Virus record (IMG/VR): IMGVR_UViG_3300025108_000042 | Span: 1 to 63,213 of that record | Source: a virus | Lineage: Duplodnaviria; Caudoviricetes | Length of the DNA stretch: 63,213 nt | Strand: one strand, 5' to 3' | Part shown: positions 14,101 through 60,001 of the stretch, in pieces | Numbering within the stretch: the first letter of the stretch is position 1 | Layout: every line of letters begins with the position of its first letter | Program-made: the position numbers and the translations under genes | Notes under the pieces: generated by a model | Database searches by the model: none | Told to the model about the DNA's origin: nothing | What the model saw: only the letters and a program-made list of their open reading frames with translations

Positions 14101-16375
14101 TCTCTGTGGATGGAGCTACTTCAGCTTTTATTTCTTGTTCTGGAGCTTGCTTAGTATCTGGAGCTGTTTCTGGAGTGGGAGCGACTTCAGTTTTTGGAGC
14201 CGGGGCAAGCTGTTGGTTGATTTTTTCATCTTGTTTAGCTAAATTTTCTAATTGCTGTTCTAATTCTTCTTGCTCGTACTGGCTTGTAATAATGTTGTAA
14301 GCAACCTCATCGCCTATATTACCTCTAAAGGTCCTTTTAGTGCCGTTTGCTGCATCTAAATTAACAGATACTATATTTCCTTGCTCGTCACGGTTAATTG
14401 CTGCTAGAGGGTCGCTATAGTTGTTCTGATATTGCTCACCACGAATAGTGATATTGTTACCATCAATCGATACAATCTCCTCAGCTTTTGCCAGTCCAAG
14501 CTCATCAGCAAATTTGCCGTTAAGATCGTCTATATTTCCAAGCTCAATTATATCCCCATCGTCAGTCAACAAAGATCTCTTGCCAGCTCCTTCATCAATA
14601 ATACGACCAGCAACTTGCTTGCCCGAAGGAGACTTCATAGTTACGCGACCTTCAATAAGGTCTTCAAATCGATCTGGTTGTACCGCTTTGTCTACTTCTA
14701 AGTCAATGGTAACTGGAGTAGGTTCATCTTCTGGTACAAATGTTTCTTTTGGAGCAGCCGGTTTAGTTTCAACTGTGCCAATTATATCTGTTTTCTTTTT
14801 ATTAAGCTCTAATTCTAATTTCTCAATTTGAGACTTGATTAAATTAGCAGCCGTTTCTGACTCAGTACCCTCTAATCTCTGCTTCTTGTCAAGAATAACA
14901 GCTTCAAGGTTTCTAATCTCATCAATCTGTTCGTCAGTAGCTTTTTTAATAAGTGCGTTCTCTTCATCGCTACGATACCTAGATTCAATTTCATCCTTCT
15001 CAACAAAAAGCTCTACAGCTTCTGTTTGTAAAAGATACAGTTGAGAATCGTCAGAAGTAAGTTTTCTTTTCTTAGCAATGTTGTTTAATGCGTTATCAAT
15101 ATCTCTGATTCTTTTTTGGTCCTCAGTAGAGAACTTACTAAAGAACTCAACGTCTTGATCAATCAATGTACGCAATGAAGATATATTCTTATTGATCATG
15201 TCATCAATAACATTTACTTCTTCTTGTGAGGCTTCTTTCTTCTTTTCCTCTAGCTCTTTTAGCTGTTGTGCTTTTTTTGCACGAGCTTTTTCGTTCTTAA
15301 TAGAACCACGAGCGCTCATTCCGTTTGCTGTTACAATTGTACCGCCACCGGCAGTCATACCTATTAGAAAATCGTCAACAAGCTTATTTACATCAAAAGG
15401 TTTTCCTTCTTTAACTCCAACGACCATCTGGTCAAACGAGTTTACCAAAGCTTCCTCAAAGCCTTCTTCCAATCCGCTTTTAGCCAATTGCTTGTATATG
15501 TCACTCGCTTTTACACTCTGTATAAAAGATTGTCTGTATGCTTCAGTGGAAGCCTGTTTAGAGAATATCTTTCTAAATGCCGCAAGGTCGGCTCCCCCCA
15601 TTTTCTCTGCCAATCCCTCTACAACACCTGCTGCCGTAGCAAACATTAGTTTCTCTGACGGAGAATACACTGGATTATTTTCAATCTCACGATACTTATT
15701 ACCACCAGCACTTACAGCAACTACACCTATACCTGTTGTAGCAGCTAAGGCAACCGAAGGTATAGCCTCTGTAGCACCACTAACCAATAAAAAAGCTGAT
15801 TTAGATATTTTACCATCTTGCGCTAAACCTACAATCCCTCTTTCAGCCTCCTCTTTAGTAATGCCAGCATTTGTATTACGAGTATTTCTATAGAATTCTG
15901 CGTTAGCAGCAAAGGTATCTGCGGCTTTTTCTATAAAGTTAGGATCTTCAAGTGATGTTATTGATTCAAATAAAGGACTATTGAATCCACCCGGCATTCC
16001 AGAAGAGCGAGCAAAATCGTAAGCCATATTAGCGTAGTCAAGTATACCGCCTACAACACTATTAGATCCACCTACTAATTCTGATAAAAAAGGAGTCTTT
16101 GCCGCACCTCTAGCAAAAGCGCGATCAGCCTCTTTAAGAGACTCAAAGAAAGGATTTGGCGGTGTTTCAACCTCTGTAGATACTGATGGTCCAACCAAAG
16201 ATTCTCCAGCTGTAGCTTCTTTTTTTTTTGGAGCGTAATCTACTTGCCCCTTGTATACAGGGTACTTCTCTAATATTGCGTCAACCAATACAGAATCTTC
16301 GTATTCGTTATACTCTGGATACTTAGCCTTTATCTGTGATGCAAAATCCTGTACAGAGAGTTTATCTTGAGGCAT
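8195..16375 (-). CDS. Giant internal virion/ejection protein (2726 aa) with an embedded JAB/RadC domain
   Basis: Size and position after the tail genes; E...IHNHPSGNLKESSGD...LLDGII motif. Confidence 0.75.
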   Translation of the reverse strand: MPQDKLSVQDFASQIKAKYPEYNEYEDSVLVDAILEKYPVYKGQVDYAPKKKEATAGESLVGPSVSTEVETPPNPFFESLKEADRAFARGAAKTPFLSELVGGSNSVVGGILDYANMAYDFARSSGMPGGFNSPLFESITSLEDPNFIEKAADTFAANAEFYRNTRNTNAGITKEEAERGIVGLAQDGKISKSAFLLVSGATEAIPSVALAATTGIGVVAVSAGGNKYREIENNPVYSPSEKLMFATAAGVVEGLAEKMGGADLAAFRKIFSKQASTEAYRQSFIQSVKASDIYKQLAKSGLEEGFEEALVNSFDQMVVGVKEGKPFDVNKLVDDFLIGMTAGGGTIVTANGMSARGSIKNEKARAKKAQQLKELEEKKKEASQEEVNVIDDMINKNISSLRTLIDQDVEFFSKFSTEDQKRIRDIDNALNNIAKKRKLTSDDSQLYLLQTEAVELFVEKDEIESRYRSDEENALIKKATDEQIDEIRNLEAVILDKKQRLEGTESETAANLIKSQIEKLELELNKKKTDIIGTVETKPAAPKETFVPEDEPTPVTIDLEVDKAVQPDRFEDLIEGRVTMKSPSGKQVAGRIIDEGAGKRSLLTDDGDIIELGNIDDLNGKFADELGLAKAEEIVSIDGNNITIRGEQYQNNYSDPLAAINRDEQGNIVSVNLDAANGTKRTFRGNIGDEVAYNIITSQYEQEELEQQLENLAKQDEKINQQLAPAPKTEVAPTPETAPDTKQAPEQEIKAEVAPSTEKESQPEAAPEPEVAAKKEDDESDLDKKREINKELEGRTIPSIRTTGAPLPDLELDIASRLMVRKEIMSGNKAPFYRNEEEFYAKTITGKMNPDEFIQLVTAAIINTEIQKQKVLNGGKETSKSELVSKPLDSIERYRMKNDRVEYFGRREIYPKRVWKAIPINRGSGQYDILSSLKAGGSLSKYTANSSKFTKDQILIDAGLKKEEAPEQEQKVFSKPEQKAQPKKKSIPNKQDIIDAETVSAISLKSESDIEKMKDIGEFGIGIVIEADEKGAKNKKFLEGSNPKTKYGFIGPEYQKNNIQEVKKKIVELVESYNGSINSMSEETRPKDLLIDSRKKAINTIKQYIKSVADDIGVNKILYDTVTIDGVSKVLTFADAIKQMDDSEFSKLKNYTEKDIKEEETIIAGVKLTKEEAEIAKGFVPSAEDLNNFYSFEKGKGVEFTVPNKEWWEVAKKIMNLGSGISIRLDIYEGGYDKNPKRKRTKDAPENVMIYGSDKGAAKGVKDVLDFKYKGLKGIEAVSALEEDYFQNLANPWLKKSVTGKFDPKKVNQVMWGNNGMYGFDLITQAKAFDALSKGKGSKRLVMDGFDADSFSDYATESTLIQDIKDLRKEGLDVVKQYVSAVAKAFNETEENVAKRLGFEALTKDEEVIAVKYPKTEELTGTDAAPSGSYTDQKTQVVNSKQLGPIRFKSSMVAKNKTEEFTLQQRIYEQNEAFSLTGPEKINGPSDVAFLLRHLESATSENMFLVVSTKKGDYKTIWLGTGTQNSAVVDMIQVGGLIDAARFDLKGEEVFVTFIHNHPSGNLKESSGDLNVYRKFSKYIKSVPGVTLLDGIIINLDSGKFATFNDRTSSKPDTKKPENIVPAPVYSFSRKELYEPFSERPAPLLDSIKLAKFLSKLKINNSGKFGHLILDQALIPTYFAFVDPSISAAEWARTIAVDAGRHGRSAILVGPSEDPKVSSTASAVKKMSDTPVIDQASTGVSIFEGSVDYVTIEESTPEFKEKQGYEPPTDEELDYPSRLQSALEKIKGFKWNQVQKEIIKMEEIRSSKVSIGMKGLGKILRELNNDLGGNWVSRKKRGIDTEYIVKARGLANRFMMEADKSAVVDDILELKNGERILKNLRAVRAIIDEKSAALVTDSTFSKLPKETKENILENIGTYMHRSYRFFDDPTYKFKFGSLGKYLNLGKNERNKAVEEEFLVLYNNWINKLINEAGYTREQAIESTLLKATKGDNKGYSKRELLLDESKRNIDNLIKEYTELLDNRKKMRAQGKGTNIPNSAFLEKKDLPVHIRELLGEVKDPIAQMAATGEVLFNIYEKGKMVEMIADGIEDNLKDVYAKEEFNKDFSKLTKPQKKLILDRVSQEPMIISNNKIKERQKATYKQINDPMSPLNTKWVHNDITEIIQSKPIYETDKDGLAGGFWSGYFFALKNLRMVNVILNSPTWGKNVIGTMYFNWANGWFNPTKQAKNIKSMAEGILNGDQKYMDMLTELAENGAIGQSFNVNQIGLSGFSYYFSVTGDKSFYDKYVGKVRNMGKKVIADLGSTYAAIDDFGKMSIYQNERESFAKKLYGDEYANLNDAQQKKVRAQAAERVKDNTPTWGRITKLGKAVQRMPIGDFQGFRFEAFRSTYRIVANVRDDIKTLMSDDTLSDEQKSEYRKDIRRKLTGLGWVGVSGPYAIIKSVSYAYGGILGMLGFDDEEETEQQRKKQAEMFENATVVRPGWLKNHKVWVKSVDDDLKVRVYDYTGFDPYAEVFGFGGYFGILGDAIQPNMAVNLLTSLAKNEDVYGRSISDPSDPAFKRVMDMAKYGGSQFLPSLITSSYRDASRKNEEIERAERYLKLQGLNPKDFNLEKVNVPKETLKLIAQRAFVRDYEYDLVQQFRYAVKGYKRSFDENYLTTDYPEHRKKILDDVREMYYSVVKVAAYKGNTQKMIEVNKIIKTNFDDYEESYILNNLDVSDKFPKEYFD

Positions 16376-16399: not shown

Positions 16400-17773
16400 T
16401 TACGATTGAGGTAATTTTAGATTTAATGGATTACCGTTAGACGAAGGTACGGAATTTTGACTGCTTACACCCAGTGGATTAGCAACGTCCGCAGCAAGAG
16501 GGAGCTGACCTTTTTTAGCAGAATCTATTAAACTTCTGATACCAGGATTGCTATTGAGTTTTGCAATTTCGTCTGGTTTAGCAGGTCTAACAGTTGTGTA
16601 TACATCTCTATTAGCGTCAGCATCAACACCTGGTAAGTTACCTACGATAGCCATAACTCCTGGAGGGAGAGTATTTCCTTTTTTATCTTTAAAAGCTCCT
16701 TGAACCTTTATCAATACTTCTCCATTTCCGTCAACCATTACCTCTAAGATGTCTTCTTTAAGCTCTTTAGCTCTACCTTGGGCATCTTTCGCACTACCGT
16801 ACTTGTTAGAAGTTTCAATAATATCAGATTCCGGTATAGGGAACGCTGTAATATCGTTAGCACTAGGATTCTTAGCTCCGTATATCAGCATACTAGGAAC
16901 CTTGTACCCTCTTACATCTTTGTAAGATTCAATAGCCTTACCAGACTCACTAGTAGGTTTAGTTTCTCTAGGTATTAATGATAAAAAATCTTTAACAACA
17001 GCTTCATTGTATCTGTTTTGGAAAGAGAATAGTCTATCTTCCGGTTGTTGAACTATAAATTGAAACTGCTGTTCATTTCTAATTTGTTTTTCCCTACCTA
17101 GTAAGCCAGCGTCAATACCTCCCCAAACAGTAGCTTTTAAAACATTATCTGAATAAGGGTCGTTCATGCGAGAATCCAAAAGCTCTCTAACAGCGTTTTC
17201 GGCAGCGGCTAAGTTTACCTGACCAGTAGTGGGGTTTGTAAATTCATTTTTAATACGGTCGCTTAAATCACTATAGAATTGATTTGCGGTTGTATTAGGA
17301 TCGTTTATTTCAAAGTCTTTACGTTTCGGCAAAACATAATCACTCATAGCTAACAAGCTGTTAGGAGTCTGAGGTGTAAATCTATACGACTGTGATGTCA
17401 AATCATACTCGTCAAAGCTAACGCCAAATCCAGCGGGATCAGCTCTAAATGCTGCGGTGTTGGTGTGATAGCTTTCTGTTAGTTGTTTTGCTGTTCCGGC
17501 TAAACGAGAGTAGTTAGCATAAGCATTGTCTAGAGCTCTTCTACTGCCTACATTATCATCAGTAGCGACACCACTCATAGCCTGCTCTACTTGATTCCAT
17601 TGTGATTGAACAGCTGGTATAAAACCTTCTAAATAGTTCTCTCCTGTCTGCTTATAATCTTTAATGAAATTATAAGAAGCTGCCTTCTCTTTCTTTATTT
17701 GGTCTTGACGTAGCTGCGCCATTCCAAGAAAGTCTGGTGTCTGAATTATAGTGCTTGGTACAAACTCCTCCAT
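16400..17773 (-). CDS. Putative internal virion protein
   Basis: Position in the ejection-protein cluster. Confidence 0.55.
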   Translation of the reverse strand: MEEFVPSTIIQTPDFLGMAQLRQDQIKKEKAASYNFIKDYKQTGENYLEGFIPAVQSQWNQVEQAMSGVATDDNVGSRRALDNAYANYSRLAGTAKQLTESYHTNTAAFRADPAGFGVSFDEYDLTSQSYRFTPQTPNSLLAMSDYVLPKRKDFEINDPNTTANQFYSDLSDRIKNEFTNPTTGQVNLAAAENAVRELLDSRMNDPYSDNVLKATVWGGIDAGLLGREKQIRNEQQFQFIVQQPEDRLFSFQNRYNEAVVKDFLSLIPRETKPTSESGKAIESYKDVRGYKVPSMLIYGAKNPSANDITAFPIPESDIIETSNKYGSAKDAQGRAKELKEDILEVMVDGNGEVLIKVQGAFKDKKGNTLPPGVMAIVGNLPGVDADANRDVYTTVRPAKPDEIAKLNSNPGIRSLIDSAKKGQLPLAADVANPLGVSSQNSVPSSNGNPLNLKLPQS

Positions 17774-18726: not shown

Positions 18727-21700
18727 TTAATTATGTGCCTTAGAATCTGTTATTACTGCATTAACAGCATATAATTCTATAGGGTTTGTATCTGTTTTGG
18801 TTAGTTTTATTTTAGCAAAATAATCTCTTATCTGGTCACCTTCAATAGATGAATCTGCAACTAGTACGACCACATCATTTTGTACCAACCCTGTAACATT
18901 TGCATTACAAGTTAGTTGATTTGATCCAGAAATACTAGAAGCTGTTAAAGACAATGCATTAAGCTGTGTGTTGTTTACCTTGTATAAGAAAGAAGAAACA
19001 CCTAGAGGGAAACTCATAGAGGATATATTATTCTTAAAAGTAATTGTGTTAGTCGACACACTGTCCACAATTCCTAATCCAAAGAATTCATCTGTGCTTT
19101 TTGTAGTGGTTATATTATCCGTTCCGTTTCTACTGGTGGTGGCTCCGTGGATATAAGTATAATGAAAACCCTCTTTCTCATCGTAAGACGTATCATCTAT
19201 AACAGCTGATTGATCAGTCGTAGAAATAGTTGTATCCCAAGCTGCATTGCCTTCTAAAGATAATGACTCGTATGTTTTTACAGCAGAAGGAGAGCTCTTG
19301 GAAACAACCTCAATTAAAGATTGAGCAGCCGAAGCTCCGTAGAATGTGTTTCTATTAGATGTTTCGTTATGCTCATACAGGTATCCATCGCTAAAGGTAT
19401 GTAATAAACCTCTTAGACTTGCAATAGACTCTGGTTCAAAACTATAGAATGTGGTAAATACATTATTGTTTATAGAGTATCCCAAGGTAAATGAGTCCTC
19501 GCTACCGCTTATCGCTGGTGTAGTAATAATATATTCCTTATTGTCTTTATCAATACCTCCGACAACCTTATGATTGGTCTCATTTGAGACAGCATTAAAC
19601 TTTTTATTTATAAAAGAAGACATCGTCTTATCACTAATAGATGTTAAGCCATTAGAGGATATACCTACTAAATCCCCACTATTCACATCTGCAAAGAATA
19701 TTTTACCATTGTAATGTGCTACAGATTCTGGATTGCTTCCACAACCGTATTCACCTGTAAAGTATCTTTCGTTGCCTAAAACATTAGTACTTAATGTTAC
19801 TAAATCATCACCACTACCTGTCTGTATTACATTCTTCCCAACAGCTAACACACCAGCCCTGCGCTCTTGTATAAAGAACAACGACTGATTGTAACTAACA
19901 AGACTTTTTATAGAGCCGTGTTCTATAGCTAAATCTTTATAATTAGCTAGTGATAGATTAAAAGATGATAAATTTAAATTAGAACTGTCAGCTGAGTAAA
20001 AATCAGAATAAGTTATAGAAGCTTTTCTTTTCTGCTGTTTAGCGTTATCAATTCTAGCTATGGGTCTACCAATAGAACTGCTTTCAGATTTAAAAAAGTC
20101 GCTCACAGAGTAGTCGTCTATAAATCTAACGATACCGTTATATCCAGGCATTTTTCTATACCTTCCTTTTGATACTTGATCGGGAGCGGCAAACATAACT
20201 CTAGGACGCATATATGCATCGCCTTGAGTTATTTCAATAACTTTATCAGTGTTTGTAACTGTTCCAGAATAAGCTACATCTAATGTAAATGTAGAATCTG
20301 TTGTTTCTTCAGCAAAGAAATAATAAGTGCTTCCTTCTTTATATACATTACCTATGGTAATACTAAAGCTGCCAGAGGTTATAACATCTCCTTTGAAAAT
20401 TCTGTCCGTAGTTGTTCCTTCAACATTACTACCACTTTGTGTGGTAATTATAAAACTAGGACTTGTCGTGACCCGGTCGTCTTCGTGGGCTCCAGATATA
20501 ATATTATATTTGGTTCCTATTTCGTAGTATATACTTTCTTTATTTTCTTGATTGTCATTATACACTTCTATAATGCAATTGTCAAACCACTTGCTGTCGT
20601 TGTTTTCTAAATTTTTATAAGTGAATCCAGTAGCGTTTTGATTTTCTTCTATGATTAAAAATGATCCAGTTGTGTAATTTACTGTATCTGGACTAGAACT
20701 GTCAAGTATTGGATTTGTATTATAGTCATCTACCAATATCTCATGACCTACAACTTTAAATATATTTAAATCTAAACCTGAAGAACCATATGATATTATC
20801 CTTAATTTATCGCCTTGTTCGTAAGAATAGCTTTTGTCAGATCCAAATGCCTTTACATAACTATTGTCCTTTTCAAAGAGAGTGTTTAATGATAGATATA
20901 TTCTTTTATTAGGAGTACTAAAGACTCCAGAGTCTTCATTAAAAGGAACAAAACCACCACCTATTCCATATATAAACTTGCTAATAGATAACCCTTTTCC
21001 AGTGTATACCGGAGCCCATCTACTAGCCCATGAAGGAGGGTTATGTGATATTCTCATAACCACACTTGAAGCTCCGTTTAAGTCGTTTTCATCAACCCTA
21101 TCGGATAATGCGTTTACATAAGTTTTTCCCAACTCCTGAACTCCGCTACTTCTATTTCGGTCATCATAATAAACCATTCCCAGTTTATGAGAAGATCCAG
21201 ATTTAAAAGTCTTACCTACATCTATATTTTTTAAAATAGGTCCCGTAAAATAAGATGTTCTGTTAGTCAGAGTCATCGCAAAATCTGTAGAAGGGTCTGC
21301 ATTATACAAAACTATTCTTCCAGATCTTATAATAAATCTTTTGTTACCGTTTTCATAAAAGCTGTTAAATTGTACATCTAGAGTTTCAGGATTAAAAATA
21401 AGAGTACCTGCATTTGCAGTGCTCGTACATTTGAATGTTAAAGATCCTTTTACCTCTCCGCTTTCAACAGTAAACAATGAAGATCCACTTGCGTTCATTA
21501 TACGAATAGAATCCCCATCACCCAAGGGGTAAAGCTTAACCGTGAAAAGATTATTATGCATTAAAGCATAAATAGCATTTTTTAAATCCTGTTTACTATC
21601 TCCAGAAGAAATATTTATTTGCTCTCTAATAATAAGTGGTGATATACCAGATTGAATACCGTCTTTTATTTTAGATATTGATTTTGTATCTACATTTTTT

Positions 21701-51421: not shown

Positions 51422-52641
51422 TATTTCTTCTTAAGTTTTACTTTACCGCCATTCATAAGATATATAGGGTTTCTGTTTTCACCGCGCCTTCCGTTAGGTA
51501 TAACATATTCTGAAGCTTTCTTCCTAGGGGTTTTTGTTATTGGTGGGTTTTTAAAAACTGGTCTGATACCATACTCTTCTTGGTAAGCATCAAGGTATCT
51601 ATCTAACTCGCGCTGACTCTTTTGTACTAGATAGTCCTCTCTGTCGGATTCGTATCTTTCGTCTGCGTCTTCTAGTGTTTTCTTAAATTTCTTTTCTTGC
51701 TGCTTGTATGCTTTTTGTAGTGGGTTTCTCATAATACCAGCAGTTGGTATTACCAATCCATCTGTACGAGAAAGACCACCTCCACCAAGTATAGCAGCCA
51801 TTGGAGCAAACCAAGTAGCTTCACCCACTTTTGATACGTACCCTTCAGAAGCTTGGTTGTATTGATCTACTAGAGCTGGACGATCGGCAGCGGATGCGTC
51901 TTGTATTTGGTCTGATATGCCAACCATAGTCTTTTCTTGCTTATATAAATCATTATAAGTTTTTGCTGCGTAAGCCATGGCTGCGATGTCTTCAATATGC
52001 CTACCTCCTGTAGATGCACCTCCAGCTAAAAGAGTATTAGCAGGTGGGAACACAGAACCAGGAGTTTGTCTGAACTTATCTAGCAAAGTGTTATCTAGCT
52101 TTTCTTTTTGGTGTCCTAACTTATAGTTACCAAATCTAACTTCATCTATTATATCGTTCTGCTCATCTCCTAAGTTCACACCAGCATTGGCTCGTGTTTT
52201 CCCCATAGTTACGTTTTCTCCTGTTTTTTTCCATTTACCAGTAGCGTAATACGGTGTTCTATAGTTTACACCGTCTGGTGATTGTTTAGCATTCTTCCAA
52301 CGCTGCAATGATATTGGACCTAGATTGTATGTTGTTGTGTAATCATCTAAGGGCAATGCTTTATCGTATAAACTTTCTACTCTTTGTCTAGAAACAAAAT
52401 CATAGAATGATGGTAGGTCGTCTCTATTTCTATCTTCTGGAAGCTCTGCATCTCTATAGTCTGGAGCCCAACCATATCGTTCAGACAATTTATCCAGTTG
52501 AGACTGCACTAGGTCTTCTAACTTGTCTTCCCATCCACCTTTATAACGGACAGGACCACCTATCATACGACTGAATCTAGGACCTTTCTTACCCTTCTTA
52601 CCGGGCTTACCACCGCCTTCGTATTTGTACTTCCCTTTCAT
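51421..52641 (-). CDS. Hypothetical protein with MKGKYKYEGGG leader
   Basis: ORF; motif at the N-terminus and YLMNGGKVKLKKK at the C-terminus. Confidence 0.7.
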   Translation of the reverse strand: MKGKYKYEGGGKPGKKGKKGPRFSRMIGGPVRYKGGWEDKLEDLVQSQLDKLSERYGWAPDYRDAELPEDRNRDDLPSFYDFVSRQRVESLYDKALPLDDYTTTYNLGPISLQRWKNAKQSPDGVNYRTPYYATGKWKKTGENVTMGKTRANAGVNLGDEQNDIIDEVRFGNYKLGHQKEKLDNTLLDKFRQTPGSVFPPANTLLAGGASTGGRHIEDIAAMAYAAKTYNDLYKQEKTMVGISDQIQDASAADRPALVDQYNQASEGYVSKVGEATWFAPMAAILGGGGLSRTDGLVIPTAGIMRNPLQKAYKQQEKKFKKTLEDADERYESDREDYLVQKSQRELDRYLDAYQEEYGIRPVFKNPPITKTPRKKASEYVIPNGRRGENRNPIYLMNGGKVKLKKK

Positions 52642-53024
52642 AAAAATGGATTTATTTTTTTTCTAGGTAGCATAAGCTCCGGGAATTTAGCATCTCTAAC
52701 TTCTTGCATAGGAATACGTTTGCTGTACTCTTCTCTGCCAGGTCTAGAGTTTCTAGCCATAACTAGGTTTTCAGGGTCCATGATATAGGGACGCATGGTA
52801 TACATAGGGTCTGAATCTTCTTGATCAATAGCTCCTCCCATCATACCTCTATCAATATAGCTGGTAATCTCTGGTGGCATATTCTCTGGATCCATAATAC
52901 CTTCAAGCATCATTATCTTAGCAGCTAAAGCAAGCTCTTCCATTTGTCTAGCAAACTCTGTCTTCTTGCTTACCTTTTTCTTTTTAGGTTTGCCACCGCC
53001 TTTGTATTTATATCTACCCTTCAT
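52638..53024 (-). CDS. Hypothetical protein with MKGRYKYKGGG leader (start revised)
   Basis: The shared leader defines the start at 53024. Confidence 0.7.
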   Translation of the reverse strand: MKGRYKYKGGGKPKKKKVSKKTEFARQMEELALAAKIMMLEGIMDPENMPPEITSYIDRGMMGGAIDQEDSDPMYTMRPYIMDPENLVMARNSRPGREEYSKRIPMQEVRDAKFPELMLPRKKINPFL

Positions 53025-53172
53025 TCTTCTTACAGTTTTTTGCTTCAGAACAATAGCATATTTCATCGCTACCACAAGCAAATGGATGCTCTGCTGTTGT
53101 TTTTATACCCGCTATTCGGTGTAACATACTCACTAACAGTACAATGCCTAATAGTATAATAATTCCTGTCAT
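53014..53172 (-). CDS. 52-aa membrane-anchored Cys-rich peptide, first late gene
   Basis: MTGIIILLGIVLLVSML...CGSDEICYCSEAKNCKK; promoter 5 nt upstream. Confidence 0.55.
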   Translation of the reverse strand: MTGIIILLGIVLLVSMLHRIAGIKTTAEHPFACGSDEICYCSEAKNCKKNEG

Positions 53173-53840
53173 AGATACAAAGATAATCAATATAATGCTA
53201 CAGCTGTTTGTGTCAAATGAGACTTGATAATGTCATTTATTTTTACTAACTTAGCATTGTGATTGAGATCAAACGCATGATTGAACTCATGTTCTTAAGT
53301 GAATCAGTTTATAGTTCAGAAATAAACTAATCCAAGTACAGAGTGCCAAATCCCAATTAAGGCACACTCTAAAATTCACGTTAAACACTACAATACGCCC
53401 TAACTATACCTGTTTCTGAACCACGCGTTCAGTCCCAGAGATCCCCTTACAACAGCTGTTATTAGTATTGCATACACAGTGTCCACTACCTAACAGATAT
53501 ATCCTATACACCCCCGCAAATCCATACTCTGAACCCAAACAACAACTTTCTGCACTTTACAGCAATCTATTGCCCCGAAAAATACCCCAGAAATATCTAC
53601 CTAGGGGATTATATATATAGTCTACCGATAGAAACCGCGCACCTAAACCGATATCCAGACCACCCCCGCCCGACCAGCTGACCGCCTTTGTGCACTTTTT
53701 CAGCTTTTAGCACCGTTTACTGCCTGTCTGGCGATCTTTGTTCTACCTGTTTAGTGATCAATACCAACCCTTGCACCTCCAGACAACCGAAACAACCGTA
53801 TAGCTCCTATGTAGGGCATTTACTGTCGTATCTGGGGCAA

Positions 53841-53904
53841 CACCTAACCAGCTGACGAGCTGACCGGATTAAGAGCTTACGAGCTGACCAGCTGACGAGC
53901 TCAG
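53841..53904. repeat. Tandem 8-bp array (C/G)AGCTGAC
   Basis: cacctaac cagctgac gagctgac cggattaa gagcttac gagctgac cagctgac gagctcag; one extra copy at 53675. Confidence 0.85.
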
Positions 53905-53934
53905 GTAGTGTTGAATTCTTTTTGTTGCGTTCGT

Positions 53935-53964
53935 TTTGTTTATTCACATTTGTTTATATATTGC
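53935..53964 (+). promoter_or_regulatory. Putative early promoter (TTTG, 18 nt, TATATTGC)
   Basis: Near-consensus Bacteroidota -33/-7 elements upstream of the structured leader. Confidence 0.5.
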
Positions 53965-54010
53965 AATTCAGTAGAACGGTCAGCCGTTCACGTTCTTTGA
54001 CATTCGGGAA

Positions 54011-54147
54011 AGTTAAAACAGATCTGAAGAGCTTCAGTAGTGCGAAGCCAGAGCGCCAGTGATGGCGCCAGGACTTAATAAGTTGAAACCTATGAACGGG
54101 CACACGTTCAAAGCAGGTGCGAAAGCTCCTGCGGTTATCTGTTAACT
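54011..54147 (+). ncRNA. Hammerhead-ribozyme-like RNA (type I topology with its first site; enzyme strand 54011-54090)
   Basis: AACAGAU 54017-23 pairs with AUCUGUU 54137-43; AGUU pairs with AACU across an AA bulge; CUGAAGA 54024-30; GAAACC 54085-90 pairs with GGU; GUU triplet. Stem II is atypical. Confidence 0.7.
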
Positions 54148-54165
54148 AATTTAAAACTTTGACAA

Positions 54166-54417
54166 ATGGAAACATTGACAAATTATGACCATGCACAGTT
54201 AGACCTTGCAACCGGTCAACACCGTACACACGCGCAATTCTTAGAAGTTATGGACTCAGCGTTTCATGGTGTATACTCGCAAGCAAAAGCACAGTATAAA
54301 GAATTTTGTTTTGATCCTGTGAGCTACATTGAACACATAGATGAATATTGCGAAGGATTGGTGAATGATAATGTGAAAATTGAACTACTCACTCAGCTCG
54401 TTTACATTATAGACTAA
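54166..54417 (+). CDS. Early hypothetical protein
   Basis: Bounded by repeat elements. Confidence 0.8.
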   Translation: METLTNYDHAQLDLATGQHRTHAQFLEVMDSAFHGVYSQAKAQYKEFCFDPVSYIEHIDEYCEGLVNDNVKIELLTQLVYIID

Positions 54418-54478
54418 AAAAGGGGAGCGCTTACGGGCGCTCCTTTGGTTATCTGTTAACTAATTAAAAATCATTAAA

Positions 54479-54715
54479 ATGAATGATTCAAAGAAACTCT
54501 GGCACGTTCAACAACTGCACATGCTGGAAAGGTCAAACCCTTATTCGTACGGTTCTTTTGTGTTTACCAGCTCAGGCGAAATATTCACAGTTGATGAAGC
54601 GGTTGACATTTGGGAGGACATCAAAGAAGAAGGACTTTTTTACGGTGTGAATTGGGAAAGCGAGTTATGGAGCGAAAGCGGTATACAAATACCAGCCGTT
54701 TATACTGAACACTAA
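54479..54715 (+). CDS. Early hypothetical protein
   Basis: Bounded by repeat elements. Confidence 0.8.
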   Translation: MNDSKKLWHVQQLHMLERSNPYSYGSFVFTSSGEIFTVDEAVDIWEDIKEEGLFYGVNWESELWSESGIQIPAVYTEH

Positions 54716-54774
54716 GATGAAGAGCGCCAAATGGCGCTCTTTTGGTTATCTGTTAACTAATTAAACTCACTAAA

Positions 54775-55071
54775 ATGAAGGTGTACAACGTATACAAGGC
54801 AAACGAGGAGCTATACATGACATTTCAAAGCAAAACTGAAGCGGTTGACTTTATAGAATATGGAGCCGCAAGTGTTTTTAGCGAAGAGGGCTTTTATTTG
54901 GAGGAGGCGCTTATTTGTAAATGCGGTAACGATAAAGAAGTTATGGAGCGTTTTGATGCGTACGGCTACGCAACCGGTGATTGGTGCAATACGTGTTATG
55001 AAAACGGAAAATATCCATACAGGAAAGATCGTTACTACGACTACTTTAACGCTGGGGAAAGATTAGAGTAG
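54775..55071 (+). CDS. Early protein with a possible Zn ribbon
   Basis: CKCG...WCNTCY. Confidence 0.8.
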   Translation: MKVYNVYKANEELYMTFQSKTEAVDFIEYGAASVFSEEGFYLEEALICKCGNDKEVMERFDAYGYATGDWCNTCYENGKYPYRKDRYYDYFNAGERLE

Positions 55072-55122
55072 AAAAGAGCGCCATTTGGCGCTTTGGTTAT
55101 CTGTTAACTAATATAAATAAAG

Positions 55123-55578
55123 ATGAAAACTACAGTATTTATCGGGAAAGCTGAGGTAAAATGGAAAGCAAAGAAGAACCCAATAGAGCACAAAATTAGA
55201 AGCTCAAGGGATGCTTACAATTTATTAAAGGCACATATCGGAAAAAAGATATTTGAACAAGAGCTTTTTATTACTATGTATATGAACAAGGCGAACACCG
55301 TATTATGGATTGAAACCATAACTCAGGGATGCGGTGCTTCGTGCTCTGTAGATATCCCAGCAATAACAAGAAGAGCTATAGAGGGAACGGCACACGCGGT
55401 AATTGTCGCGCACAACCACCCGAGCGGTAATAAAAACCCCAGTGAGAACGACAAAAGAGTAACTAAGAACTTAAAGAAAGCGATTAAACCATTTAACATA
55501 GAAGTGTTAGACCATATTATCGTTTGTGGGGATGGTTACTACAGTTTCGCTGACAATGGCGAACGATCGTTAGCTTAA
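55123..55578 (+). CDS. radC: RadC-like JAB domain protein
   Basis: QELF...AHNHPSGNKNPSENDKRVT...VLDHII. Confidence 0.9.
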   Translation: MKTTVFIGKAEVKWKAKKNPIEHKIRSSRDAYNLLKAHIGKKIFEQELFITMYMNKANTVLWIETITQGCGASCSVDIPAITRRAIEGTAHAVIVAHNHPSGNKNPSENDKRVTKNLKKAIKPFNIEVLDHIIVCGDGYYSFADNGERSLA

Positions 55579-55638
55579 TTTATGAGGAGCGCCAATGGGC
55601 GCTCTTTGGTTATCTGTTAACTAATTTAATCAAACACT

Positions 55639-56355
55639 ATGAAGAATAGAGTTGTATTTACTATACCTGAAAAGGACATTATAGTTGTAATACGTAAGGG
55701 CAAGACCACAAACAAGAAGATTACAAACGGTGCACCACTGGTGCAAACGTACACATTCAGCACTGCTCAATGGACTTTAGCTTCCACCAGTAAAGGCTTC
55801 GGGATGAAGAAATTCTTTGCTTTGGATGGTTCCAATTGCTTAGACTGTCCATATAGTGGAAACAAAGGTAAAGGCGGTTGCTATACACACAAGTTTAACC
55901 AATATGTAGGCTTTTTGTCTATGCTACGTAGCATTAAACACAATGAGCTTACACCACTTACAAGGGACAAACAACAGAAAATTATTGAGCTTTCGTTTAA
56001 TAGTTATGTAAGATTTGGGACATATGGCGAACCATCCTTAATGCCTTTATCTGTTGTTGATGCTATGGTATGGAATGCTAAGACATGGACTGGTTATACG
56101 CACCAATGGGAAAAAGAATGGGCGAACAGTTATAAAAACTATTTTATGGCTTCTACGCACAATCAAACAGAAAGTAAAAGAGCCAAAACAATAGGCTATA
56201 GATCATTTGTTTCTGTAATACCTGACAAAAAAGTTACCGGTATAAACTGCCCAGCATCTAAAGAGCAAGGCTACAAAAGTAACTGTGAAAAGTGCGGGTT
56301 ATGCTCAGGGGTGAAGGGCAAAGGAAACAAGGATGTATGGATTATGGAGCATTAA
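55639..56355 (+). CDS. Cys-rich Gp88-like (possible Fe-S) early protein
   Basis: CLDCP...CY, VRFGTYGEP, TGYTHQW, CPAS...CEKCGLC. Confidence 0.6.
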   Translation: MKNRVVFTIPEKDIIVVIRKGKTTNKKITNGAPLVQTYTFSTAQWTLASTSKGFGMKKFFALDGSNCLDCPYSGNKGKGGCYTHKFNQYVGFLSMLRSIKHNELTPLTRDKQQKIIELSFNSYVRFGTYGEPSLMPLSVVDAMVWNAKTWTGYTHQWEKEWANSYKNYFMASTHNQTESKRAKTIGYRSFVSVIPDKKVTGINCPASKEQGYKSNCEKCGLCSGVKGKGNKDVWIMEH

Positions 56356-56407
56356 AAAGAGCGCCACTGGGCGCTCTTGGTTATCTGTTAATATAAGTTA
56401 TAAAGCA

Positions 56408-56665
56408 ATGAAAAAGAATGACTACGAACTAAGTATAGAATACAGGGAGCGTTTCGCACTTAATAAAGGCGAACGTTACTGGATGCAAGAAGCAATTGAT
56501 TTGTATTCTAAGATGGCTAAGGAAGAGCTGGAACACGAAATAGAACAAGGTAAAAGACCGGTAATAGCTCCAGCTTTTTTTGATGGATTATTTAATACTA
56601 TAAGCGGTAAGCTTGATGCTTGGATGCAAGAAGAAAGAACTGTTCTTCAAGACTCGGAAGAATAG
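56408..56665 (+). CDS. Early hypothetical protein (start revised)
   Basis: First ATG after repeat 6. Confidence 0.75.
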   Translation: MKKNDYELSIEYRERFALNKGERYWMQEAIDLYSKMAKEELEHEIEQGKRPVIAPAFFDGLFNTISGKLDAWMQEERTVLQDSEE

Positions 56666-56743
56666 TTAATGATTGGTTAACGGTAGAGTCAAAAGGAGCG
56701 CCATTGAGCGCTCCTGGTTATCTGTAAATTTAAACAATGTATT

Positions 56744-57244
56744 ATGAACAGGATTAATTATTGGATTAAGGAAAAATTAGGCTTAATCGATAAAGGGGGG
56801 GTGAACAGGATTAATTATCTATTAATGAAAGTAGATTACCTGAGCACCGAATTGCACATAGCTAAAGAGCAAATACTTAAGCTTGAAAAAGATGTTAGCG
56901 GTATTCATGATGAGCAACACGAAACAAGGGAGACCGTATCTAACAACGAGTACGCAATAGACAGTGTGAAAAGTGATTTAGAAAATCATAATGTTCCGTA
57001 TCTGTGGGAAATCGTAGATAATAACAAAGATTATATAAAGAACCTTGAAGTACCTGATGAATACAACATTAGGGAGATTATAAAATTAGAACTGGATGCT
57101 CTAAAAGGGACTAATGACTCACAAGAGACAATAGGAGGTGATAGTATAAGTAATGAACGATTGATTACCGGTATTGTAAGAAGTGAAATTGCACAGTACA
57201 ACAAGTTTATTGTAGATGCATTGAATGAGAAATCATTTGATTAA
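56744..57244 (+). CDS. Early coiled-coil protein
   Basis: Bounded by repeat elements. Confidence 0.75.
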   Translation: MNRINYWIKEKLGLIDKGGVNRINYLLMKVDYLSTELHIAKEQILKLEKDVSGIHDEQHETRETVSNNEYAIDSVKSDLENHNVPYLWEIVDNNKDYIKNLEVPDEYNIREIIKLELDALKGTNDSQETIGGDSISNERLITGIVRSEIAQYNKFIVDALNEKSFD

Positions 57245-57298
57245 TTATAAGAGCGCCACTGGGCGCTCTTGGTTATCTGTTAATTAATATATATAAAG

Positions 57299-57499
57299 AT
57301 GAAACACCAGTATGGAACAGTGTACGCTGAGGCTACGCTAAAAGTTCGTGTAAAGTTTAATACGTATCTACACGATGCAGAAGAGTATGAATACGTTATG
57401 GATGCTATGTATAACGGGGACTTTGATTTTATAGAAATGCCTAAAGTTGATAGCTTTAAAATCGAGAATGTAAGAACGTTTGAAGAGAAGGAGTTATGA
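57299..57499 (+). CDS. Early hypothetical protein
   Basis: Follows repeat 8. Confidence 0.75.
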   Translation: MKHQYGTVYAEATLKVRVKFNTYLHDAEEYEYVMDAMYNGDFDFIEMPKVDSFKIENVRTFEEKEL

Positions 57500-57762
57500 C
57501 AAGGTTTGAACAGGATAAAGAGACTATTTTTCGTTACATAGACAGTAAAGGATCAAGACCAATGAGTAGGGCTTATTGGAATTTAGTGGTGAGCATACGC
57601 GATGTAGGGTTGTTCTGTGAGGGAATAGCACCTAACAGACACTGGAGACTTAAACACGTTAAAGAATATTTCGGAGTAAAAGGAGGTAAACAAAAGATTT
57701 ACGACCAGTTAAACGAAATGCTTGATGACTATAGAAAAGAATTAGGGTATGAGACAGTGTAG
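57496..57762 (+). CDS. Early hypothetical protein
   Basis: ATGA coupling to the upstream ORF. Confidence 0.75.
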   Translation: MTRFEQDKETIFRYIDSKGSRPMSRAYWNLVVSIRDVGLFCEGIAPNRHWRLKHVKEYFGVKGGKQKIYDQLNEMLDDYRKELGYETV

Positions 57763-57961
57763 TGAAACCGGAGAGGTGATGTATGGTGGTTGGGTGATTT
57801 GTGATGATATCTATATCAAGTATGAAAAGGATTTAGACAATTATTTGCTTGAATGGGCAAAAGATGATGGTCTACATAATTTCAACATTGAATGGCTAAG
57901 AGATTATTATTACAACAGTGAGATGTTCTACTACACAACGTGGTACGAAGAAGAAGATTAA
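57749..57961 (+). CDS. Early hypothetical protein
   Basis: RQCSETGEVM..GW...YYTTW. Confidence 0.7.
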   Translation: MRQCSETGEVMYGGWVICDDIYIKYEKDLDNYLLEWAKDDGLHNFNIEWLRDYYYNSEMFYYTTWYEEED

Positions 57962-58013
57962 TTAAAAGCGCCACTGGGCGCTTGGTTATCTGTTAATTTA
58001 AAATATAAAGATT

Positions 58014-58148
58014 ATGTATACAGACAATATGTATAGCAACGAGTACACTGAGGCTCTTGAGGACTTTGAATGTTTTGTAAGAAACATATTAGATAGCGAA
58101 GATTTGACTGATAAAGAAAAAGTTGAAACAATTAAAAAACAATTATAG
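58014..58148 (+). CDS. 44-aa early protein (not in ORF track)
   Basis: ATG at the usual distance after repeat 9, open to TAG. Confidence 0.7.
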   Translation: MYTDNMYSNEYTEALEDFECFVRNILDSEDLTDKEKVETIKKQL

Positions 58149-58151
58149 ACT

Positions 58152-58388
58152 ATGAAAGTATTTACATTAGTACAAATTATTGAAAGAGACTGCGATGTAA
58201 AAGTAGAATCTTTTGCTACACTACAAGAAGCTATGAAATTTCAAGACAAGCTAACCAGAGAATTTATACAAGACTGGGGCTCTGTAAAAATTGACTTCGC
58301 ATTTGAAGAGAACTCCTCTATCTTTTTTATGGAGTCTAAGAATGGTAGTACTGACCAACAAATAGTAATCAAAGAAACTGAAATATAA
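58152..58388 (+). CDS. Early hypothetical protein
   Basis: ORF in the operon. Confidence 0.75.
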   Translation: MKVFTLVQIIERDCDVKVESFATLQEAMKFQDKLTREFIQDWGSVKIDFAFEENSSIFFMESKNGSTDQQIVIKETEI

Positions 58389-58451
58389 ATAGATTGAAGT
58401 AAAAGGTGCGTTGCACCTTGGTTATCTGTAAACAATTTAAAACAATTTATT

Positions 58452-59204
58452 ATGCCTAACTGGGTAAATTCAACAGTTGAAATGGAGTTACAAAACTCTG
58501 ATGTAAAGCTTTTAGAAGCTATGAAAGAAAATGGCGGGATCTGTAGGACCTACAATCCAATGCCAGCTCTGTTAAACAAAACGGTATCACCAGTGCAAAT
58601 TGTATCTGTTAAAGAATACAAGGAACAACAGAAGTTTAACGAAGAATACTTACAGTCTATTCCTGAAGGACAAAGTCCTGATGATTGGAAGATTAAAAAG
58701 GGTATTACAAAAAAGATGCACGAAGAGTATATAGAAAAGTATGGACATGCTGACTGGTATAGCTGGGCAAGTAAGCATTGGGGTACAAAGTGGGGAGATT
58801 GTGATTTTAATTACTGGGAAGATGAAACGACAGACAATGGTACAACAATAGTAGTTGTCCACTGGGAGTCGGCTTGGGGACCTATCTTAAATAGTCTTAC
58901 CGAGAAGCTTATAAACGACCTAAGAGCTACTGATACACCCGCTAAATTCAATTGGGAAGAAGAGCAAGGATTTGGGGCAGAATATGAACTGGTAGATGGG
59001 AAGTTGTCTTTAATTAGTGAATGGGATTTACCTGAATGGGGAGATGAATATTACGAAGATGATAAGGGCAACTGCTACACTTACCTTATAGAAGATTACT
59101 ACAAGATGGGAGAAGTCTACAGTAAGGGATTCTATTTAGAGCATTCAATACACGAGCCATATGACAAGGAAAAGGATGGTGAAATCAAAAAGATGAAGTG
59201 GTAA
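58452..59204 (+). CDS. DUF1281/YubB-like ferredoxin-fold protein
   Basis: MPNWV.S, DWYSW...WGTKWG, ESAWGP. Confidence 0.75.
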   Translation: MPNWVNSTVEMELQNSDVKLLEAMKENGGICRTYNPMPALLNKTVSPVQIVSVKEYKEQQKFNEEYLQSIPEGQSPDDWKIKKGITKKMHEEYIEKYGHADWYSWASKHWGTKWGDCDFNYWEDETTDNGTTIVVVHWESAWGPILNSLTEKLINDLRATDTPAKFNWEEEQGFGAEYELVDGKLSLISEWDLPEWGDEYYEDDKGNCYTYLIEDYYKMGEVYSKGFYLEHSIHEPYDKEKDGEIKKMKW

Positions 59205-59380
59205 TGGATTTTAAAGAAGTGTATAGTAAGATAGATTCTGTAAGGTTTTCACTGGCTATGAGAGATAATGTATTGCACGTTGCGTATATTGATAAGATAG
59301 AGCAGTTTATAAACACCTTAGAGATTCAAAATGGAAAACAAGAAGAGAGAAGAGGTGTTAAAGCGCATCTTGAAGAATGA
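59204..59380 (+). CDS. Last early hypothetical protein
   Basis: TAATG coupling. Confidence 0.6.
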   Translation: MDFKEVYSKIDSVRFSLAMRDNVLHVAYIDKIEQFINTLEIQNGKQEERRGVKAHLEE

Positions 59381-59475
59381 ACTGATCAGTGGTACAACAG
59401 TTATACTGAGCGGTATGCTTTTTATATTTTTATGTCAGTTGATTGTTGATTTTCTCGTTAAGTTTATTACATTTG

Positions 59476-59508
59476 GAGGGTAGTCCGTTGGGCTATCCTC
59501 TTTTTTTT
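59476..59508 (+). terminator. Terminator closing the early operon
   Basis: GAGGGTAGTCC-GTT-GGGCTATCCTC plus T8. Confidence 0.85.
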
Positions 59509-59969
59509 GTCCTTTTTTAGCTGTGATTCGGGGAGATAAACAGCATCCAGAAGAGTATTTACAATATGTAAAAGACACGCTGGTTACGGAGATAATTAAT
59601 ACACACTCCGTGAGCACCAGTAATACTTGGTAACTATTCTGTTTCAATGGCTCGTACAAAAGTGTAAGCAAGTGCTGGATTCCTATACCTTTCCGACTTG
59701 TGGGTGACTGTACTACTGATAACTCGGTGTAAGCTGGTTCCTATAAAGGGTTTTATACCCTTTAGGGGATCTTGAAACTCCTTCTAATCTAATGATAGCT
59801 GGTTCCCAGTAGAGGGAACGTTAGCTCTTAACAAGGAGCGGGGCGCGAAAACGCCCCAAGCGAATTGTATACAGTGAATAAGGAGCAATATTGAAAATAA
59901 AGACTGTATTTCTTGTTTATAACTGAGTAATTACTTAGATTTACACAATGCTTACTGCGGGGTAGCATG

Positions 59970-60001
59970 GGGATTATGGGGTTCAACTCCCTGTAGTCCC
60001 A
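59970..60001 (+). other. tRNA-like minihelix (12 bp + 7-nt T-loop) in a 5' leader
   Basis: GGGATTATGGGG-TTCAACT-CCCTGTAGTCCC-A. Confidence 0.6.

Follow-up and report, generated by a model that had tools for sequence, protein, structure and literature searches.

One hammerhead enzyme strand and ten substrate sites in a phage early operon: a candidate natural multi-target ribozyme

Can a single hammerhead enzyme strand serve many cleavage sites within one natural transcript? This question is raised by the early operon of the virus recorded as IMGVR_UViG_3300025108_000042 in IMG/VR (Duplodnaviria; Caudoviricetes). The window analyzed here is the complete virus record of 63,213 bases, whose minus strand carries late and structural genes (portal, large terminase and virion proteins) and whose plus strand carries, from about position 54,000, an operon of small genes. 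A first-pass annotation had proposed that the leader of this operon contains the enzyme half of a hammerhead ribozyme and that an intergenic repeat supplies ten matching substrate halves, so that one RNA would cut up the whole early message. Comparison with related phages leads us to conclude that the leader is very probably a functional cis-acting hammerhead, and that the same enzyme strand probably, though with less assurance, cuts the other nine sites as well.

The leader contains the motifs AGTTAAAACAGAT, CTGAAGA and GAAACC exactly where they had been placed (Table 1), and A54088 pairs with U54135 as the A15.1-U16.1 pair of a hammerhead. The minimum free energy (MFE) fold of positions 54008-54150 consists of stem I, stem III and five hairpins (z = -4.34; 1 of 200 shuffled sequences folds as well), and the leader of a relative, L036, likewise folds into stems I and III plus five hairpins (z = -4.50). 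Thus, the core and the arms of the proposed hammerhead stand as drawn. The simple stem II does not, since the 54 nucleotides between CTGAAGA and GAAACC form three hairpins (H1 to H3) rather than a single stem. Stem III, in turn, encloses two hairpins (H4 and H5).

A loose hammerhead descriptor finds only one hammerhead in the window, that of the leader, and no CUGANGA core near sites 2 through 10. One match in a 63-kb window is not remarkable by itself, because unrelated phage DNA (2.85 Mb) gives 12 matches to the same descriptor, at 9 cores, which corresponds to about 0.4-0.5 expected per window. The case for a putative hammerhead therefore draws its weight from conservation among relatives, and not from the descriptor match.

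Table 1. Positions of the leader RNA elements, the ten sites and the upstream boxes in the window
Feature	Positions	Strand	Remarks
Putative host promoter -7 box, TATATTGC	53957-53964	+	TATATTTG in relatives L011 and L266
Conserved box, ACGTTCTTTGACATT	53989-54004	+	just 5' of the arm; kept in both clades
Stem-I enzyme strand	54011-54023	+	distal AGUU 54011-14, AA bulge 54015-16, proximal AACAGAU 54017-23; pairs with 54137-54147 in the MFE fold
Hammerhead core C3-A9, CUGAAGA	54024-54030	+	identified by sequence; conserved except N7
Stem-II domain, three hairpins	54031-54084	+	H1 54031-35/54044-48, H2 54053-58/54063-68, H3 54072-76/54080-84; from folds and covariation
Core G12 A13 A14 and stem-III strand A15.1 C C (GAAACC)	54085-54090	+	invariant in all leaders
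Stem-III domain	54093-54132	+	hairpins H4 (54093-98/54105-10) and H5 (54113-54132, GAAA loop); from folds
Site 1	54133-54147	+	GGTTATCTGT from 54133; GGU (stem III), U17, predicted cut after 54136 (GUU/A), then AUCUGUU-AACU (stem I)
Site 2	54421-54461	+	GGTTATCTGT from 54447; hairpin, GGUU, predicted cut after 54450, AUCUGUUAACU; no core nearby
Site 3	54719-54758	+	GGTTATCTGT from 54744; hairpin, GGUU, predicted cut after 54747
Site 4	55075-55109	+	GGTTATCTGT from 55095; hairpin, GGUU, predicted cut after 55098
Site 5	55583-55622	+	GGTTATCTGT from 55608; hairpin, GGUU, predicted cut after 55611
Site 6	56357-56393	+	GGTTATCTGT from 56379; hairpin, GGUU, predicted cut after 56382; without distal AACU
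Site 7	56694-56730	+	GGTTATCTGT from 56716; hairpin, GGUU, predicted cut after 56719; stem I of 6 bp (AUCUGU)
Site 8	57248-57285	+	GGTTATCTGT from 57271; hairpin, GGUU, predicted cut after 57274
Site 9	57966-57998	+	GGTTATCTGT from 57984; hairpin, GGUU, predicted cut after 57987
Site 10	58403-58434	+	GGTTATCTGT from 58420; hairpin, GGUU, predicted cut after 58423; stem I of 6 bp

The repeat GGTTATCTGT occurs exactly ten times in the window, always on the plus strand and at the ten places originally reported, and a G+C-rich hairpin precedes every copy. When one mismatch is permitted the window holds 14 matches, a number reached by none of 100 shuffled sequences (mean 4.39, maximum 10). The hexamer ATCTGT is found 58 times on the plus strand, with GGTT before it in ten cases and GGTG in none. 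The predicted cuts coincide with the fourth base of each GGTT, and open reading frames (ORFs) indeed start 24-29 nucleotides after each of them, as had been claimed; site 7 also has an out-of-frame ATG at +17, ahead of its ORF start (+24). All ten sites present GUU as the cleavage triplet, which obeys the NUH rule, and the sites of relatives present GUU, GUC or, once, GUA. Each intergenic unit is equivalent to everything 3' of the H4-H5 linker in the cis hammerhead, with an H5-like hairpin followed by the stem-III strand GGU, the triplet for cleavage and the strand that completes stem I.

Relatives were gathered through matches to the large terminase (TerL) in IMG/VR, of which there were 309, and 80 loci (designated by L numbers) were retained. 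The leader RNA is present in eight other IMG/VR virus records (L011, L012, L131/L266, L036, L177, L037, L022 and L033). Scans of metagenome collections were anchored on the box ACGTTCTTTGACATT; the first pattern was too loose (at least 118 stretches, nearly all of them chance), and a tighter one gave 59 stretches, 6 of them from the phage family. Of 36 metagenome stretches, 33 contain the leader; the two sets overlap, some stretches being contigs already in the IMG/VR set. In the close relatives L011 and L012, which carry the repeat of the window, the leader is nearly identical and its differences are compensatory changes in the three hairpins between CUGAAGA and GAAACC. The leaders of L036 and L022, whose terminases are about 70% identical to that of the window, are reached only weakly when nhmmer is run with the window leader (E values of 0.076 and 0.18), and they read CUGAUGA, then three hairpins, then GAAACC. 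The combination of CUGAUGA with GAAA is the textbook hammerhead core.

Fixed in every leader found are C3 U4 G5 A6 G8 A9, G12 A13 A14, ACC and GGU. The core strand C3-A9 is constant except at N7 in all nine IMG/VR leaders and all 33 metagenome leaders, the latter having U at N7 in 24 cases, A in 7 and C in 2, and H17 of the leader site is either U or C. These are the two positions that a hammerhead leaves free. GAAA together with the A15.1-U16.1 pair is constant in 14 of 14 distinct aligned leaders. The three stem-II hairpins are present in nine of nine IMG/VR leaders, as are H4 and H5 with differing sequences.

A covariance model (R1) run with default filters missed most leaders of the second clade described below. 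With filters off and E values up to 10 it gave 86 matches, mostly noise, from which we used the 15 with E up to 0.15 (14 distinct) and excluded L285 (E 0.55). In the alignment of these 15 leaders, which was fitted to the structure of the model and is hence biased toward it, two-sided changes are seen in 24 of 36 pairs, and 93.3% of cells are paired. Not one of the 500 shuffles attains that number of changed pairs, and slid controls give 2-9 pairs. Such two-sided changes affect 5 of 5 pairs in H1, 6 of 6 in H2 and 4 of 5 in H3, as well as 5 of the 7 proximal pairs of stem I, where 98.9% of cells pair. Because of this conservation and covariation and of the energy folds, the leader is, as far as comparison of sequences can tell, a genuine structured RNA that has been conserved and that has a hammerhead core in a predicted type-I layout.

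The first-pass annotation had also raised the question of whether arm and repeats change together in related phages. They do, in that there are two arm types, each accompanied by its own repeat motif. The window clade (the window, L011, L012 and L131) has the arm ACAGAU and 5-10 sites per record of the form GGUY/AUCUGU, where the slash marks the predicted cut, and the second clade (L036, L037, L033 and L177) has the arm AUCAGU and 4-8 sites of the form GGUY/ACUGAU. In L022, the inclusion of which brings the second clade to 4-9 sites per record, the arm is AUCGGU and the sites are GGUH/ACUGAU. Because this arm forms a G.U wobble with its sites, the match is at the RNA level. In neither clade was the motif of the other found after GGTH, and no GGTG precedes the arm complement at true sites. 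Substrate sites that lack a core of their own and match both arms number nine in the window, with 3-9 more in each of seven related records. Moreover, the hairpins before GGU in the second clade are unrelated in sequence from site to site, yet are always present. One site in the L022 record is GGUA. Two GGTG contexts are 2-mismatch matches (one in the window, inside a listed ORF; the other not placed), and together with one GGTA match of the same kind they are taken for chance or false matches.

Other relatives carry complete ribozymes at equivalent places. Tandem complete minimal type-I hammerheads lie 240-470 nucleotides apart on the early strand of L025, L029, L032, L058, L059 and L062, and single ones lie between early ORFs of L043, L044, L057, L077 and L079. 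Where these hammerheads lie between ORFs, the upstream stop codon falls in the stem-I arm and the predicted cut falls 18-33 nucleotides before the next ATG. Intergenic RNA cleavage thus appears to be a habit of this phage family. The window clade has the same predicted geometry as the relatives with tandem hammerheads, but has no enzyme half at nine of the ten places. No substrate-only sites were found in the loci with complete hammerheads; the elaborate leader enzyme is found only alongside substrate-only sites, and plain hammerheads never are. Orthologous junctions offer no comparison here, as the early proteins of the window gave no tblastn match in the loci with complete hammerheads.

We hypothesize that the early-operon leader (about 53970-54147) encodes a type-I hammerhead in which 54011-23 pairs with 54137-47 as stem I around a core of CUGAAGA and GAAA. 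The leader would fold and cut its own transcript after U54136. Either released or still attached, it would then pair with the other nine units through 6-7 (up to 11) base pairs in stem I and 3 base pairs in stem III, with the hairpin of each substrate taking the place of H5, and each unit would be cut after GGUU. The polycistronic early RNA would in this way become a set of single-gene mRNAs, the products having a 3' hairpin that ends in a 2',3'-cyclic phosphate and a 5'-OH followed by an A/U-rich leader of 24-29 nucleotides. The idea of one enzyme strand for ten sites has gained comparative support, from which we infer catalysis, cutting above all at sites 2 through 10, action in trans or within the same transcript, and an effect on gene expression. 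On balance we lean toward a still broader statement, namely that a hammerhead RNA of about 165 nucleotides, freed by its own first cut, may be the first natural small ribozyme to act as a guide-directed multi-site endonuclease. Its substrate would be a portable tag of about 40 nucleotides (hairpin, GGUH and 6-11 nucleotides) before every early gene, and H2 through H4 would be adaptations to bimolecular action.

Several observations weigh against this hypothesis. A check with Infernal hammerhead models, suggested in the first-pass annotation, turned out unfavorably. The Rfam hammerhead models RF00163, RF00008 and RF02275-7 give no match to the leader at E values up to 10 in positions 52000-60000 of the window, nor do they match the leaders of L036, L022 or L037 at permissive thresholds. 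The identical searches do detect small hammerheads elsewhere in the L036, L022 and L037 loci, and the inserts of 54 and 42 nucleotides are a likely reason for the miss. Stem II is not a canonical helix, since position 10.1 pairs within H1 and position 11.1 within H3. A direct 10.1-11.1 pair (G-C or G.U) is possible in most leaders and is precluded in L011 and L012, where these positions are A and C. A four-way junction could stack on the hammerhead core in place of stem II. Nevertheless, we know of no described hammerhead in which stem II is built from three hairpins, and the activity of the leader is for this reason not assured.

The pairing itself also leaves room for doubt. Stem III has 3 base pairs (A-U, C-G and C-G) that never vary and so offers no covariation, although a fourth pair, A-U, is possible in L036 and L037. 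Cofolds of the released enzyme with sites 2 through 10 are weak (-4.7 to -10.4 kcal/mol at 37 °C), with stem III forming in 7 of 9 and 5-6 of the 7 stem-I pairs forming in 9 of 9. After the predicted cut at site 1, the enzyme fragment would retain its own 3' GGUU paired to ACC, a tail that later substrates would have to displace. Among site variants, wobble preserves pairing in about 4 of 8 changes, a result that is not significant with so few events and that rests on rough counts, as the pattern overlooked records in which the arm is AUCGGU (L269 and similar ones) and admitted three 2-mismatch matches. Furthermore, with only two arm types found (three with the wobble form), arm and repeats are seen to change together across what is essentially a single evolutionary split. 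Finally, in those relatives that carry complete hammerheads, all copies share one stem-I sequence (GGUUAA/UUAACC), even though each copy has its own enzyme half. A constant motif can thus have a cause other than pairing with a shared enzyme.

This last observation and the weak predicted binding in trans would both be accommodated if the leader hammerhead cut only site 1 in cis. The nine other units might then be targets of a protein endoribonuclease, 3' stabilizer hairpins with a standard 5' leader or weak terminators, and the arm would follow the motif only by way of site 1. A hairpin with a T-rich tail does score like a terminator, with 13 found against 3.3 expected. However, the corresponding tail of the second clade, GGUUACUGAU, is U-poor and unsuited to a terminator, and a protein nuclease that cut nine sites would leave the leader ribozyme needless at the tenth. 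Sites 2 through 10 retain just what a hammerhead substrate needs, namely GGU, an H17 that is never G and 6-7 nucleotides matching the arm. The exclusive company that the elaborate enzyme keeps with substrate-only sites is likewise unexpected if those sites are not its substrates. We therefore regard cleavage confined to site 1 as unlikely.

Alternatively, the leader might be a structured antisense regulator that pairs with the repeats to affect translation or stability without any cutting, its likeness to a hammerhead core being noncatalytic. Complementarity and the joint change of arm and repeats are signs of pairing, not of cleavage, and both the noncanonical stem II and the failure of Rfam models to match the leader would be natural in such an RNA. 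It would be surprising, however, for an antisense RNA to keep eleven core nucleotides fixed and the A15.1-U16.1 pair invariant in 9 IMG/VR records and 33 metagenome stretches (sets that overlap in some contigs) while only N7 and H17 vary. The pairing also ends precisely at the cleavage triplet on both sides, and complete hammerheads and pistols are used elsewhere in the family. Pairing without cutting is in our judgment highly improbable.

The repeats could instead be terminator-promoter cassettes that make each gene its own transcription unit, with the hammerhead-like leader a coincidence or a relic. They would then resemble the cassettes of T4-type phages, which are composed of a promoter and a stem-loop. 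The hairpins of the window score as terminator-like, and the order of early genes differs between the window and L266, as it would for mobile cassettes; intergenic repeats of HF1-group haloviruses, another possible parallel, are reported to hold promoters (PMC7230728). We consider such cassettes still less probable than antisense pairing, as the count of sigma-70-like sites shows no enrichment (17, with 18.3 expected), none of the 27 different proteins scanned from the window (25 of the 32 ORFs with at least 150 amino acids) matched an RNA polymerase family, a DNA signal would leave the G.U-compatible arm of L022 and the covarying leader unexplained, and relatives fill the equivalent gaps entirely with hammerheads. 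The repeat motif also contains no TAnnTTTG box, which is the Bacteroidota promoter consensus. Hairpin promoters served by a virion RNA polymerase of the crAss-like or N4-like kind were considered too and dropped, given that no polymerase family was matched among the scanned proteins and that the relatives pointed to ribozymes.

Further ribozyme-like elements occur in this phage family. Pistol ribozymes score above the Rfam threshold of 34.5 at L022:4635-4699(-) and L037:3466-3530(-), with 70.6 and 54.9 bits, respectively. Small type-I hammerheads at L036:5357-5406(-) and L037:4245-4294(-) score 29.7 bits against a threshold of 34. Both the small hammerheads and the pistols are on the early strand and precede the leader-type hammerhead, and the Rfam search of positions 52000-60000 of the window found no counterpart of either. 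In L059 and L062 (reverse-strand ~19880-19925 and ~9635-9680) one tandem copy has CCGAUGA for CUGAUGA with the common stem I kept, and this degenerate copy may be dead or may be cut by a neighbor. In L069 and L071 (~2150-2200 in both; reverse-strand 13936 and 10823), UGUA/UUAACC follows a very stable hairpin (-19.3 kcal/mol) with no core nearby and may be a substrate-only site of another kind. The early strand of the cultured Flavobacterium phage elemoA (L307, NC_055852.1) has two matches below threshold, one to Hammerhead_3 at 19083-19139(-) (36.3 bits; threshold 48.5), just upstream of the first early gene, and one to RAGATH-1 at 17291-17371(-) (27.8 bits). The hammerhead matches of cultured Flavobacterium elemoviruses all fall below threshold.

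The cultured phages nearest to the window have Flavobacterium and Cellulophaga as hosts. Among cultured phages there was no match by megablast to positions 53900-58500, and none by tblastn to the early protein of 250 amino acids. The early transcript probably starts near 53970, downstream of the box that resembles the Bacteroidota -7 element. Between this putative start and the ribozyme arm sits ACGTTCTTTGACATT, which is kept even though the adjoining arm differs between the clades. It contains TTGACA without a -10 element after it, and a protein site, a second promoter or a part of the RNA are candidate roles. The stretch 53850-53901, upstream of the putative promoter, holds four copies of AGCTGACGAGCT, of which two are exact and two differ at one position. 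Each copy forms a small inverted repeat, and similar runs of GAGCTGACGAGCT occupy the equivalent place in L012 and L266. The copies look like operator or origin repeats; they include CTGACGA, and no hammerhead fold containing it was found.

Two features of the coding sequence deserve mention. A RadC-like JAB domain occurs twice in the window, once in an early protein of 151 amino acids (55123-55578, plus strand; E 6.6e-36) and once at residues 1486-1596 of a giant protein of 2726 amino acids (8195-16375, minus strand; E 1.1e-07). The early gene order of the window (54166-57961) differs from that of L266 (1380-5864), where the homologue of 57496-57762 falls between those of 55639-56355 and 56408-56665. 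This difference fits the shuffling of gene cassettes at the repeats.

If the proposed action of the leader is correct, then any gene cassette furnished with the tag would be processed automatically, an arrangement suited to the shuffled and fast-changing early region of these Flavobacteriia phages. Phage-associated ribozymes, of which there are many, would gain a clear function in breaking up operon mRNA without a host RNase. The phage family forms a natural series, with a full ribozyme at every junction in some members and one elaborate enzyme with many apparently bare substrate tags in others. Nature would have arrived at the trans-hammerhead format by itself, and the leader would provide a naturally optimized scaffold for a bimolecular hammerhead.

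How does this system compare with those already known? To our knowledge, small self-cleaving ribozymes in nature are single-turnover and cis-acting. In the engineered trans-cleaving hammerheads of Haseloff and Gerlach, the core and stem II belong to the enzyme, and the NUH triplet comes from a substrate that is bound by way of stems I and III. The division between enzyme and substrate in the window is the same. However, those man-made enzymes have a plain stem II and arms of similar length, whereas the window has a three-hairpin stem II and a stem III of 3 base pairs with flanking hairpins on both partners. Among proteins, the phage T4 endoribonuclease RegB cuts GGAG in early intergenic regions, and it resembles the proposed system as a phage-encoded means of cutting early mRNAs at a short repeated intergenic motif; for the window, an RNA would confer the specificity by base pairing, whereas RegB is a protein.

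A natural precedent for enzyme and substrate strands that lie far apart in one RNA is the discontinuous hammerhead that Martick et al. reportedly described in 2008 in the 3' UTRs (untranslated regions) of mammalian Clec2 genes. This ribozyme has one enzyme strand for one site in a eukaryotic 3' UTR, without repeated substrates. The discovery spurred a search for trans-cleaving ribozymes, and the 2019 review that recounts it names, in the sections covered here, no natural small one (PMC6765202). RNase P RNA is a natural trans-acting RNA enzyme with many substrates, but it is large, works together with a protein, acts by hydrolysis instead of transesterification and recognizes shape rather than a guide sequence (PMC6765202).

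As the first-pass annotation had supposed, the full-text literature, including PMC3088659, PMC6765202, PMC10085705 and PMC7230728 and with subscription journals and supplements outside this scope, yielded no description of a natural hammerhead whose single enzyme strand faces several substrate sites; by that measure the proposed arrangement is an undescribed variant of a known ribozyme class. Its closest counterpart among these sources is the set of tandem complete hammerheads in phage-like polycistronic RNAs described by Perreault et al. (2011; PMC3088659), who demonstrated cutting between genes in vitro with three arrangements. Those RNAs likewise place hammerheads between the genes of one transcript, an arrangement shared by L025, L029, L032 and other relatives of the window. 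There, however, every site has a full ribozyme of its own, whereas in the window a single enzyme half appears to face ten sites, nine of which consist of the substrate half only.

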